Source: an uncultured Gammaproteobacteria bacterium (GTDB lineage: Bacteria; Pseudomonadota; Gammaproteobacteria; JAGOUU01). From it: DNA of 64,000 nucleotides. Below, piece by piece: positions 11,248-56,035 of this stretch. Location: positions 13,417 through 77,416 of the forward strand of contig CAYGUI010000001.1 of assembly GCA_964353115.1 (NCBI GenBank), in the 5' to 3' direction. A model generated the notes under the pieces. That model worked only from the letters and a program-made list of their open reading frames with translations, did no database searches and was not told where the DNA came from. Both the position numbers and the translations under genes were made by a program. Each line of letters opens with the position of its first letter. The stretch's first letter is position 1.

Positions 11248-11376
11248 TCTACCGTCATCCCAGTGTCTCTACCGTCATCCCAGTGTCTCTACCGTCATCC
11301 CCGCGTAGGCGGGGATCCAGAAACTAGATTCCCGCCTACGCGGGAATGACGTACTTACGCGGGAAAGCCGTACTTT
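11248..11376. repeat. Palindromic repeat element array: 21-bp tandem units plus two ATTCCCGC/ATCCCCGC-N4-GCGGGAAT palindromes
   Basis: tctaccgtcatcccagtgtc appears twice, followed by atccccgcgtaggcggggatccagaaa and attcccgcctacgcgggaatgacg. Lies in the aguB-aguA intergenic spacer. Confidence 0.8.
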
Positions 11377-12341
11377 TATTTTGCCACTTGCATAGTTAAA
11401 CAATGAATACTTCCACCTTGTTCAATAGTAATTCTGCTATCAATGCCAATAATATCACGTCCCGGGAACGCATCTTTTAGCGTATTTTCAGCTATTTTAT
11501 CAGATTTTACATCAAAAGTTGGAAATATGACTGCGCCATTTATAATTAAAAAATTTAAATAACTCGCTGGCAATCTTTTATCGTCTTCATATCTGCTATA
11601 TACAGCAGGAGGAAGAGGAAGAGGAACTAGGGTTAAGTTATTATCTACAGCAATATCAATCAGTTGCTGCTCCATATAATCAAGCTCCATATGTAATGGA
11701 TCTAGTTCATCATAAGACTTAAGATATAAAATTGTCTCATGATCAGCAAAGCGCGCTAAATTATCGATATGACCATCAGTGTCATCGCCCTCTAATCGAC
11801 CATATTCAAGCCATAAAGTTTTCTTAACTCCTAAATAGGTAGCTAGCTTTTGCTCTATTTCAAGACGTGTATTGCTCGTTCTATTGGGGTTTAAGAGACA
11901 AGATTCGGTGGTTAAAACCAGTCCTTGACCATTAGAATCAATGCTACCTCCTTCGAGTATAAAAGGAATATTAAAAATTTTTTTATTCCCGTAAATACCA
12001 TCTTTGTATAAACTTTCGGTTAATTTATCGTCTAAATCATGTGGAAATTTGTCACCCCAACCATTAAATTGGCAGTTGGCTATTGCACTTTTGTCATCTT
12101 GTTCGACAGATATTCCACAAATATCACGAGCCCAGGTATCATTTGTCGGCTGGTGTATTACCGTAACATCTTGATATTTTTCAATTATATTTTTAAGTTT
12201 TGTATAAAACTCTTCTATCTCAGGAAAATATTCACTCCATGGTGAATTATCCTTACTTGGCCAAACAAGTTGTACAGAGCTTTGTGGCTCAAATTCAGCA
12301 ATTAAGCGGATGTTATTATTAATGTTATTCATAGCTCGCAA
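11376..12341 (-). CDS. aguA: Agmatine deiminase
   Basis: Porphyromonas-type deiminase fold; C-terminal catalytic Cys motif [10 protein letters not shown] characteristic of agmatine deiminase. Confidence 0.75.
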
Positions 12342-12371
12342 ATCATATCAAAAATCATTATAATACGCCAC

Positions 12372-13013
12372 ATGAGAATTATATTATTAGGTCCTCCTGG
12401 GGCGGGCAAAGGCACTCAGGCACAGCAAATTTGTGAATATTATCAAATTCCTTTAATTTCAACTGGCGACATTTTGCGCACTGCAATTAAGAATGGAACT
12501 GAGCTTGGTCTTAAAGCTAAAAAAATTATCGATGCTGGTGAGTTAGTTTCTGATGACATAATTATGGGTTTAGTAAAATCTCGTCTTGAATATCCAGATT
12601 GCGATAATGGCTATTTATTAGATGGTGTGCCACGAACTATTGGTCAAGCCGAAGCTATAGATAATTTAGGAATTAAAATAGATTTTGTTGTTGAATTGAA
12701 AGTAGATGAAAATTTAATTCTTGAAAGAATAACTGGCCGTAGAGTTCACCAAGCTTCAGGGCGTAATTACCATGTTAAATTTAATCCACCAAAATTAGCA
12801 AATAAAGACGATATAACTGGCGAAGATTTAATTCAGCGTCCAGATGATAAAGAAGATACGGTTAAAAATCGCTTGAAAGTTTATCGTGATGAAACATTGC
12901 CGTTAGTTAATTTTTACAAAGATAAAGAAAATATAAAATACTTTGAAATTAATGGCGTTGGCGAAGTTTCTGAAGTAACAAAAAGAATTTTTTCAGTACT
13001 TCAAGCTACATAA
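12372..13013 (+). CDS. adk: Adenylate kinase
   Basis: P-loop [10 protein letters not shown]; LID and NMP-binding regions conserved; 213 aa. Confidence 0.95.
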
Positions 13014-14358
13014 TACTGCATTTTGGCATATCCCCACAGGCAGTATTTCTAGGTTTTGCTAATATTTTATCAATGCTATTTTTTATTTCTTTATAAGCTT
13101 TATTGGGAGCTTCTTTAGATGGTTTGATAGAATTTAATTTTGAAATTAAATCTTTATTATCAAAAATAAAAATATATCTCAAAGCCTCTGTAGCAGTTTC
13201 ATGTGTTAGCAATCCTGTTTCGGTCATAAAAATGAAAGCATTAAAAACATAATCAAAAAATTTTTCTTGCTCAAGCGGAGTAGTAGCTTTTATGAGGTTA
13301 TTTATTAATTCAGAAGATAATATGTGCCGACTATTTAATAAAGAGATAATATCGTAAAATCTACCAGGGCAACTTTTAATTTCATTAAGATAACTGCAAA
13401 ATATTCCGTTTATAACACCAGCATATTTATTGCAAAGAGTTAAGATTCTTGCATAATCAATTATATTTTCAATATTTTTTAATAAAAATATAAAGCTTAA
13501 TTTTGATTCTGGTAAAACAAAATTTTTTTCTAAAATATTTTTTATTATAGTTATTTCATGTAATTTTTCTAAATAGATATATAAGTTTTTATATATTATT
13601 CTTGAACAGCTAACCTCTAAGCCATCAATGTTTTTTATAAAGCTTAAAATGTGCTCAGCATAATTGATATTTTTTATTAAAAATAAAATTAATTCACGAT
13701 TTATGCTTATTTTGCTATCGTTTAATATATTTAATATCTCTGTGAAAATTGAAATTGTTTCGAAATTGTCAGCCAAAATATTTAATAATCTGTCGTAATC
13801 CTCAGGGTCATCTTCAAAAAAAATATTTAAAAATGCTCCTAAGTTTTTACTTAAAAAGGGGGTGTCATTTATTCTTTGTGCAAGCAACTCTCTTCTGGTC
13901 GGTAATTTTTCTTTATGGTATAAATCCATCGCACGCAATATCTCAATATCGGCAGTAGAAAATTCTTCTCTATAATAATTAATAAATTTTTTATTTTGTC
14001 GTATATGTTTTGATAACCATAAAAAATCATAAACAATCCCATTCTCTGCAACAAAAATTCTATCAGAATCCAGCTCATTTATTTTTTCTAGGCTTATTAT
14101 GTCGAATTTATCGCTATAATAATTATTTATCTCTTGTATAAAAATATTTCTTAGTTTTTCCTTAAGCCCAGTAATTTGATTGTATATTTCAGGGTTGGCT
14201 ATAACTGTATGGTGAGTGAATTGAATAGCTTTTTGAGATTCAATAATCGTCTTTTTATCTTGAGATTTTGGCAGAGATATTAATTTATTATATAGACTTC
14301 TTATAATAGGTATGTGTGATAACTGCTCAAGAGCACTTATTGTGGTTTCAGATAGCAT
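13006..14358 (-). CDS. Hypothetical protein ending in a eukaryotic-type CaaX prenylation box (CSIM); effector candidate
   Basis: Minus-strand terminal codons tgc-agt-att-atg-tag give C-S-I-M-stop. Low-complexity helical protein with no known domain. Its 3' end overlaps adk by 8 bp. Confidence 0.55.
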
Positions 14359-54624: not shown

Positions 54625-54634
54625 TAATAAATAT

Positions 54635-55975
54635 ATGAAAATTTTTCGAACCCTACGGCAAAGAATTTTAGTATCCTCAATAATTATAATAGCAATTTTT
54701 CTAGCATTATCTGCTTTAGCAGTGATGGAAGTTTATAATAAACAGCTTCGTCATAAGGTTTATCTGCGCTTAGATAGCATGATGTTAGATTTAGTAAGTG
54801 CAGTTGATATCAAATCATCGCGTGATATAAATGTAAATTTTAAACGCATGGATGATAGGTTAACGCGTGCAAATACGGGTTTCTATGCTGTTATTGAAAA
54901 AGAGAATAAGATTCTATGGCGCTCGCCATCAACTCCAGAATTTTTTGATTATAAAATTAATGCTACAGACGGCGTTGAAATCAATAAAGCTATAACAAGC
55001 TCAAATCAAAATTTATATGCTTTAATTCATGGTATATTTTTTCGTGATATTACTGGTAAAAAAACAGATTACACCTTTATAGTTGCTGAGCCTTATAGTG
55101 TTTATCAGGGAGAGGTATTATTATTTAGAAATAATTTGTTTTTGGGTTTGGGGCTTGTAACTTTATTTGTTTTATTTTTACAGTATTTTGTATTAAAAAT
55201 TGGCCTAATTCCATTGAATAAAATAGTCGAAGAAGTTCAAGACATAAAAAATACTAAACGCGATTATTTAAGCTCAGATTATCCAGAAGAGTTGCAAAAG
55301 CATGCCGATTTAATAAATGCTCTGTTAGAGCAAGAGCGTGGTAATAAAATTCGTTATAAAAATTCACTAGGAGATTTAGCTCACAGTTTAAAAACTCCGC
55401 TTGCGATAATTAAAAATACTATATCTGACTTAGGAAAAGGCGAGAATATTAAAATAATTTCAGATCAAGTTTTAGATTTATCAAAATTAATCGAATATCA
55501 TTTAAAAAGGGCAGCCCAAGCAAATAAAAATATTTTTAAAAAGCCCATAAGAATTAATAAAGAAGCTGAAAAAGTAATAAATGCACTAATCAAAGTTTAC
55601 AATAAGAAAAATATTTATTGTGAATATGATATTGATAAAAATATTAAGTTTTACGGTGATAAAGATGATTTTGTCGAAGTTTTAGGTAATTTATTAGACA
55701 ATGCTTACAAATGGGCTGAAGGTACTATTTTTGTTAATGTTGTTAATTCTAGTGATAATAGCAAAATAATTATTGAAATAGCTGATGATGGCCCTGGGAT
55801 TCCTAAAACGCTAGTTGCCAATATTTTAGAGCGTGGGGCACGGCACGATAAAAATGTTGCAGGGCATGGTATTGGTATGGCGATTGTAAAAGATATAGTT
55901 AATTCTTATCATGGAGAGATAGAAATCAGTAGTTCTTTAGAGCTTGGTGGCGCAAGGATTGTCGTAGTATTATAG
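54635..55975 (+). CDS. phoQ: Sensor histidine kinase, PhoQ-like
   Basis: Two TM helices flanking a ~135-aa periplasmic domain, HAMP, H-box LAHSLKTPLAII, N/G boxes DDFVEVLGNLLDNAYKWA...GGARIVVVL closely resembling E. coli PhoQ. Confidence 0.75.
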   Translation: MKIFRTLRQRILVSSIIIIAIFLALSALAVMEVYNKQLRHKVYLRLDSMMLDLVSAVDIKSSRDINVNFKRMDDRLTRANTGFYAVIEKENKILWRSPSTPEFFDYKINATDGVEINKAITSSNQNLYALIHGIFFRDITGKKTDYTFIVAEPYSVYQGEVLLFRNNLFLGLGLVTLFVLFLQYFVLKIGLIPLNKIVEEVQDIKNTKRDYLSSDYPEELQKHADLINALLEQERGNKIRYKNSLGDLAHSLKTPLAIIKNTISDLGKGENIKIISDQVLDLSKLIEYHLKRAAQANKNIFKKPIRINKEAEKVINALIKVYNKKNIYCEYDIDKNIKFYGDKDDFVEVLGNLLDNAYKWAEGTIFVNVVNSSDNSKIIIEIADDGPGIPKTLVANILERGARHDKNVAGHGIGMAIVKDIVNSYHGEIEISSSLELGGARIVVVL

Positions 55976-55980
55976 TTTCT

Positions 55981-56035
55981 GGATTCCCGCCTTCGCGGGA
56001 ATGACGGTAGTATTAGCGGGAATCCAGAAATTACA
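55981..56035. repeat. Palindromic repeat element after phoQ
   Basis: ggattcccgccttcgcgggaatgacg palindrome plus partial unit agcgggaatccagaaattac. Confidence 0.8.

Follow-up and report, generated by a model that had tools for sequence, protein, structure and literature searches.

Short palindromic repeats recur at six loci in a 64,000-nt stretch of DNA from an uncultured gammaproteobacterium (contig CAYGUI010000001.1, positions 13,417 to 77,416; hereafter, the window means this whole 64-kb stretch), and they raise the question of which family of elements they represent, what may act on them and how the tandem copies of one arm beside them arose. A preliminary description of the sequence compared them with miniature inverted-repeat transposable elements (MITEs) and repetitive extragenic palindromes (REPs), likened them to Rickettsia palindromic elements (RPEs) and Neisseria Correia elements, and proposed that they act as terminators or RNA-stability hairpins at operon ends. 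Judged by their sequence, the repeats belong to an already known family published in 2025, comprising the Neisseria Transformation Sequence (NTS), the dRS3 repeat and the degenerate Ssn-related motif (SRM). We consider it likely that the seven copies are recognition sites of a cognate Ssn nuclease encoded outside the window, repeat and nuclease forming a semi-selfish pair, and we report that NTS copies carry arrays of additional 5' halves with a fixed polarity.

One oriented unit and its family

We searched the window for the core ATTCCCGC-N4-GCGGGAAT with the pattern ATTCCCGCNNNNGCGGGAAT, allowing up to two mismatches, and found seven matches at six loci, whereas none of 100 dinucleotide-preserving shuffles of the window contained a match (0.00 expected by chance). 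The recurrence of one inverted-repeat core at six loci, as first described, is therefore real. The octamer GCGGGAAT was counted 18 times where 1.1 occurrences were expected, and all 18 lie within these six loci. Because the G+C content of the window is only 30-36% (the genome is described as 33% G+C), the G+C-rich units are conspicuous, and their density of ~1 NTS per 9 kb appears similar to that of pathogenic Neisseria.

All seven copies (three on the plus strand and four on the minus strand; Table 1) represent one oriented 28-nt unit, CGTC-ATTCCCGC-NNNN-GCGGGAAT-C-Y-R-G/T. The unit is asymmetric, with CGTC on one side of the palindrome and C-Y-R-G/T on the other in every copy, and both the GTC before the palindrome and the C after it are invariant. 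The flanks CYAGAAA and GACG reported earlier do not mark two types of element; they belong to a single unit seen in both orientations. With DNA folding parameters, an 8-bp G+C-rich stem and a 4-nt loop are predicted for each copy; the lone copy at 33589 folds at -8.9 kcal/mol (z = -4.6), and the locus at 55979, where the flank of the 56007 unit extends the palindrome into an outer 21-nt inverted repeat (55970-55990 / 56016-56036, 90% complementary), folds at -16.7 kcal/mol (z = -5.6). The copies at 11293 and 11324 form an inverted pair, tail to tail and 3 nt apart, and in the former a paired T>C and A>G change (ATCCCCGC/GCGGGGAT) preserves the stem, a variant that is shared with Azospirillum copies located next to ssn.

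The Neisseria dRS3 repeat (ATTCCC-N8-GGGAAT) was the lead to the definition of the NTS by Chenal et al. 2025 (Nat Commun, PMC11893778), who gave the 28-nt NTS as CGTCATTCCCGCGMAVGCGGGAATCYRG, which contains dRS3, and who also defined the degenerate SRM for other phyla. When the search rule of that paper was applied (CGTCATTCCCGCGMAVGCGGGAATCYRG with at most one mismatch), six of the seven copies were NTS, three matching exactly and three with one mismatch; the seventh has three mismatches, two of which are the paired stem change. The SRM pattern (HGTCWY-N0-2-YYVSBRH-N0-5-WNVSBRG-N0-2-RNCYNB) fits all seven copies and has no further match in the 64 kb. These matches, in conjunction with the invariant GTC and C, identify the window repeats as NTS/SRM elements.

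NTS matches were also found in records of Neisseria, Azospirillum, Legionella adelaidensis, Sphingobium, Photobacterium and Francisella, and Rickettsia is among the SRM-rich genera (PMC11893778). The host of the window appears from its proteins to have Legionellales as its nearest named relatives (SucC, 71-73%): the best SucC match is 76% identical, followed among named groups by Legionella erythra (73%) and a Legionellales metagenome-assembled genome (71%), and RibF is at most ~41% identical to that of any Genome Taxonomy Database (GTDB) species representative. The searched collections thus contain no close relative of the host. A SucC of 555 aa that scored second best (P0002, locus L087, positions 3249-4916 of a European Nucleotide Archive metagenome contig) was rejected as a relative because its contig is 53% G+C and its N-terminal ATP-grasp region is duplicated, and the duplication may be an assembly or annotation artefact.

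Polar arrays of the 5' half

Tandem sub-repeats derived from one arm had been noted before, and Tandem Repeats Finder (TRF) confirmed them and revealed that it is always the 5' arm that is copied. On the NTS strand, one to four tandem units that contain just the 5' half (CGTC, left arm and spacer) come before six of the seven copies, a figure that includes decayed units read by eye; the periods are 18-21 nt, and some units are decayed. The tracts reported by TRF are 11248-11301 (period 20, 2.7 copies, 100% matches), 11337-11375 (period 19, 2.1 copies, 90% matches), 15124-15187 (period 18, 3.6 copies, 100% matches) and 38403-38477 (period 21, 3.6 copies, 94% matches). In the array beside rplS the most diverged units are those farthest from the hairpin, and the decayed unit at 11352 abuts the stop codon of aguA (open reading frame (ORF) end 11376).

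The same layout was found well beyond the window. When metagenomes were scanned for pairs of 5' halves separated by 4-12 nt, at least 128 arrays of 2-6 units were recovered from at least 120 loci of 32-71% G+C; their periods are 16-24 nt, most commonly 21 and 19. Among the matches listed, 96 arrays have a complete hairpin as their last unit on the 3' side and no array has a complete upstream unit; likewise among these, 61 of 109 truncated units diverge from the full NTS at position 12, the end of the left arm and the minimum divergence point permitted by the search pattern, and the others diverge in the loop or at the start of the right arm. In an unselected sample of 179 full NTS taken from IMG/VR, there are eight cases of an orphan 5' half upstream and none downstream, and orphan 3' halves occur once on each side. 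Matched pattern scans returned 46 stretches with 5'-half arrays against 4 with 3'-half arrays, a contrast that is somewhat overstated because the pattern for 3' halves takes in variable positions and is the stricter of the two. Thus, the half-site layout is real, polar and general for the NTS/SRM family. Under a strict exact-match criterion, arrays accompany two of the seven window copies and 8 of the 179 IMG/VR copies (binomial p ~0.04 by our own arithmetic), and the excess in the window is modest.

Local duplication seeded at the hairpin, whether through stalling, slippage or post-cleavage repair, is the most likely origin of the tandem 5'-half units. A more specific model, which we regard as doubtful, would make the layout a footprint of how NTS/SRM elements are generated: after a nick by Ssn, placed a few nucleotides to the 5' side of the hairpin, synthesis during repair or strand displacement would be halted where the stem meets the loop, and with the displaced flap incorporated again, precisely the segment between cut site and loop would be duplicated. 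If true, this model would account for the 16-24-nt units and for the breakpoints at the left-arm end, and Ssn and NTS together would be a self-propagating repeat generator beyond a transformation filter. In its simple form, with a fixed cut site setting the unit length, it does not fit at present, because the spacers range from 2 to 8 nt within the genome of the window. Should the arrays nevertheless be footprints of cleavage and repair, they would provide a testable mechanism for the multiplication of hairpin repeats, an old question for REP-like elements.

A separate observation concerns a metagenome locus (L111, 102-179, minus strand) in which the hairpin-proximal truncated units carry GTTC and the loop of the full hairpin and the distal unit carry GAAC; this loop inversion may point to a template switch inside the hairpin while the array was forming.

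Table 1. Complete NTS copies and associated 5'-half units, with positions numbered from the first letter of the window
Feature	Positions	Strand	Remarks
Tandem array of 5' halves (CGTCATCCC + spacer, period 20)	11248-11292	+	Directly upstream of the NTS at 11293; TRF
NTS copy, stem ATCCCCGC/GCGGGGAT	11293-11320	+	3 mismatches to NTS; between aguA and aguB
NTS copy	11324-11351	-	1 mismatch; between aguA and aguB; tail to tail with the 11293 copy
One decayed 5'-half unit (CGGCTTTCCCGCGTAAGTA)	11352-11375	-	Upstream of the minus-strand NTS; TRF
5'-half array, period 18 (6 codons)	15124-15171	+	Inside the ferrochelatase ORF; TRF
NTS copy, exact consensus match	15172-15199	+	In frame in hemH (14393-15469, minus strand)
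Lone NTS copy, no half-site array	33589-33616	+	1 mismatch; 8 nt past the sucD stop, 11 nt before def
NTS copy	38388-38415	-	1 mismatch; 3 nt past the rplS stop
5'-half array (CGTCATTCCCGCG + TTAACTTA, period 21)	38416-38477	-	Upstream of the NTS, on the NTS strand; TRF
NTS copy, exact match	42690-42717	-	3' end of ribF
Decayed 5'-half unit (ACGTCCGCGCTAATTAC)	42718-42740	-	Upstream of the NTS; read by eye, missed by TRF
NTS copy, exact match	55979-56006	-	3 nt past the sensor kinase stop
One extra left-arm unit (ATTCCCGC, period 21)	56007-56036	-	Upstream of the 55979 NTS

Gene context and translated copies

At every locus a co-directional next gene lies 11-113 nt from the repeat block, the pairs being aguA>aguB, sucD>def (def identified by a Pfam Pep_deformylase match), rplS>xerD-like, ribF>ileS and sensor kinase>dedA-like, and the placement of most copies at operon ends in the preliminary description does not hold. 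In particular, the block at 11248-11376, which had been placed after aguB, lies between aguA (11376-12341, minus strand) and aguB (10393-11229, minus strand), that is, inside an operon transcribed in one direction, and it contains two copies. Five of the six loci overlap a stop codon or have one at a distance of 0-8 nt.

Two copies, in hemH and at the 3' end of ribF as first reported, are translated in the same orientation and the same frame as LDSRLRGNDG. The repeat block in hemH is read as LDSRLRGNDG(LRGNDG)2LRGS, the array being translated on the minus strand as LRGNDG repeats. The ferrochelatase ORF stays open, both of its halves match Pfam Ferrochelatase (two stretches), and alignment with human ferrochelatase places ~36 extra residues between conserved blocks. 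In ribF, the copy at 42690-42717 together with the next 8 bases (to 42725) provides the final 11 codons (LDSRLRGNDGN) as well as the stop, and the Pfam Flavokinase match of RibF ends at residue 298 of 310.

The Ssn nuclease as the known partner of the family

Across bacteria, the repeat is associated with ssnA, a small GIY-YIG gene (cd10448) (PMC11893778). SsnA recognises the NTS hairpin in single-stranded DNA only and on one strand, and its cut falls a few nucleotides upstream; the NTS in RNA form is not bound. Binding depends chiefly on the C that follows the palindrome, and cleavage on the three bases that precede it (GTC) (PMC11893778). In Neisseria, Ssn shortens incoming transforming single-stranded DNA and lowers recombination around NTS-rich loci, and in N. 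meningitidis SsnA lowers the integration of NTS-bearing transforming DNA (PMC11893778).

We independently reproduced the association of repeat and nuclease. A GIY-YIG probe retrieved genes annotated 'GIY-YIG nuclease family protein', and in each of N. gonorrhoeae, Aeromonas caviae, Photobacterium sp. GJ3 and Azospirillum lipoferum the single Ssn-like gene has NTS copies in its flanks. Separately, an Ssn-like gene was present in 11 of 240 NTS-selected loci and in none of 80 control loci. Plasmid loci of Legionella adelaidensis and Francisella philomiragia with NTS-like matches had no GIY-YIG gene nearby. The earlier call for a cognate enzyme was sound, but the REP-associated tyrosine transposase (RAYT) that it named is not the partner known elsewhere, which is the Ssn nuclease.

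A type IV pilin gene (Pilin and N_methyl domains; 34260-34694, minus strand) lies 650 nt from the sucD NTS; it fits a transformable organism and is a hint only that this organism may take up DNA, the process during which NTS and Ssn operate in Neisseria.

Mobile DNA and other repeats in the neighbourhood

The window contains two identical (100%) 1,180-bp IS3-family elements in direct orientation (57177-58356 and 60711-61890), with an rve integrase core and imperfect terminal inverted repeats (TGATCTATCCC...), which bracket a prolyl-oligopeptidase (S9) gene (58552-60624) in a composite-transposon-like arrangement. About 110 nt from the first of them, a 136-aa ORF (56658-57068, minus strand) matches only the C-terminal TNB domain of TnpB/Cas12f-like proteins and is probably a truncated IS200/IS605-family remnant. 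A second, unrelated cluster of G+C-rich hairpin repeats (61891-62035) lies between the second IS3 copy and a pyrophosphatase gene; it includes a 47-bp unit present twice (AAGAAAGGGGGTGTGTATCTCCCCTTTTGTAAAGGGGAGATGTCGGC) with CCCCTTT/AAAGGGG stems, and the motif occurs nowhere else in the window. In addition, a TAATTTT microsatellite of 8.9 copies (98% matches; 1987-2049), at the end of the ORF at 1103-1996 and upstream of the ORF at 2063-3583, could be a phase-variable tract.

Discussion

In characterised systems the NTS unit acts as DNA and not as RNA, and we favour a similar role in the window organism. When the NTS strand becomes single stranded, a hairpin would form and be bound by Ssn, above all through the C just after the palindrome; Ssn would then cut the same strand a few nucleotides upstream, a step for which the GTC before the palindrome would be needed. 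Copies would spread or persist as a semi-selfish pair of repeat and nuclease and would survive where they are tolerated, that is, tight against stop codons or in an ORF where they encode a hydrophilic peptide. The presence of a cognate Ssn in this organism is likely, although several observations weigh against it. A six-frame tblastn search that used four real Ssn proteins as queries found no ssn homologue in the 64-kb window (best E = 0.28), no GIY-YIG motif was matched in the window by a regular expression, and no GIY-YIG, Y1 transposase or IS110 domain was found by Pfam among 30 of the 61 window ORFs of at least 120 aa. Among genomes with more than 200 SRMs, 81% encode an Ssn homologue and 19% do not (PMC11893778). 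In addition, the nearest available relatives (loci L088-L090; SucC 74-76%), in which the gene order after sucD differs from that of the window, have no NTS within 20 kb around sucCD, so that NTS are not clade-wide.

These same observations are what favour the main alternative, namely that the repeats are orphans of a past arrival or expansion (through horizontal transfer or in a host that has lost ssn) and are now neutral hairpins subject to slippage only; the decay of several half-units (11352-11375, 42718-42740) points in the same direction. However, six of the seven full copies depart from the consensus at no more than one position although the genome is 33% G+C, and the non-palindromic CGTC and C flanks are invariant, though a plain hairpin needs neither. 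Near-consensus copies and invariant flanks together argue for recent spread or ongoing constraint, and we regard a purely relic state as unlikely. A role in RNA, as terminators or as RNA-stabilising hairpins selected at gene ends, would suit the stable stem and the location of most loci at stop codons, and the copy at 11324-11351, the only one with a T-rich tail on the transcribed strand, passes a hairpin-plus-T scan (match 11347-11328, minus strand). The other six copies have no T tract even in this lax scan, and intrinsic terminators were accordingly rejected. Moreover, the copies occur in both orientations relative to transcription, each block is followed closely by a co-directional gene, two copies are inside ORFs, and SsnA does not recognise the repeat as RNA; no Rfam family matches, and the window contains no tRNA of which the repeats could be part, a possibility that had been raised at the outset. 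The terminator or RNA-hairpin role proposed in the preliminary description is therefore not borne out, and we consider it very unlikely.

Mobilisation by a transposase, as REPs or MITEs of the RAYT/IS200-IS605-like or Correia type, or service as attachment sites of an IS110/Piv-type recombinase, as for dRS3 and the filamentous phages of Neisseria, is very unlikely. The general layout is REP-like, the 55979 copy has a TnpB fragment (an IS200/IS605 accessory) 650 nt away, the NTS-ssnA-NTS arrangement has been likened to an insertion sequence (PMC11893778), and earlier work cited in that paper found that a specific phage recombinase targets dRS3. NTS are common in IMG/VR contigs, and this last role fits their position in several viral or predicted prophage contigs (loci L217, L219, L221, L223, L245, L250 and L252), where they appear often to lie ~200 nt or less from a contig end. 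Against such mobilisation, no Y1_Tnp or IS110 domain was detected in the 30 ORFs scanned, and the unit begins with CGTC and not with the GTAG typical of RAYT-type REPs. The only tyrosine recombinase of the window (38529-39413) is in a housekeeping xerD-dsbC arrangement, no NTS adjoins either IS3 copy, and nothing in the window suggests an element integrated at one. MITEs measure ~100-500 bp and have terminal inverted repeats and a target-site duplication; the unit described here is 28 nt long, lacks long terminal inverted repeats and has nothing conserved beyond CYRG(AAA), and no duplication is evident in the 12-nt flanks, although no search was aimed at target-site duplications.

Taken as NTS/SRM elements that are probably served by an Ssn nuclease, the repeats mainly widen the host range of the NTS to a deep-branching, AT-rich Legionellales-like lineage. 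They also provide two additions to the main text of PMC11893778, in which there is no mention of tandem or half-site arrays or of translated copies: the polar 5'-half arrays and the in-frame copies in hemH and ribF.

Comparison with known systems

The closest counterparts are the NTS/SRM elements already described (PMC11893778), with which the window repeats share the 28-nt sequence, the stem, the loop and the oriented flanks, as well as a multi-copy and mostly intergenic distribution. They differ in their 33% G+C gammaproteobacterial host, in the 5'-half units that accompany six of the seven copies, in the translation of two copies and in having no ssn gene within the 64-kb window. REPs and bacterial interspersed mosaic elements (BIMEs), with their RAYTs, in Enterobacteria and Pseudomonas are similar in being short, G+C-rich, imperfect palindromes dispersed between genes, and they too are thought to act as single-stranded DNA hairpins for a dedicated nuclease or transposase whose gene is itself flanked by the repeats; however, the partner of the NTS is a GIY-YIG and not an HUH/Y1 enzyme, and the heads of the units differ. 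The preliminary label of MITE/REP-like holds for dispersed hairpin repeats that are REP-like in a broad sense, and fails for MITEs. Correia elements resemble the NTS in being abundant intergenic repeats of Neisseria, the genus in which the NTS was defined, but they are MITEs of ~100-155 bp that end in 26-bp terminal inverted repeats and carry a TA duplication, none of which is seen in the window elements; the likeness suggested at first is to the wrong Neisseria repeat, the other being dRS3/NTS. The comparison with Rickettsia RPEs is apt for behaviour only. RPEs are 100-150 bp long, far from a 28-nt unit, but in both cases palindromic repeats are found in frame in ORFs that are left intact, here within hemH and at the RibF C-terminus, and the NTS can thus be carried in frame within essential genes (ferrochelatase and RibF), like Rickettsia RPEs.

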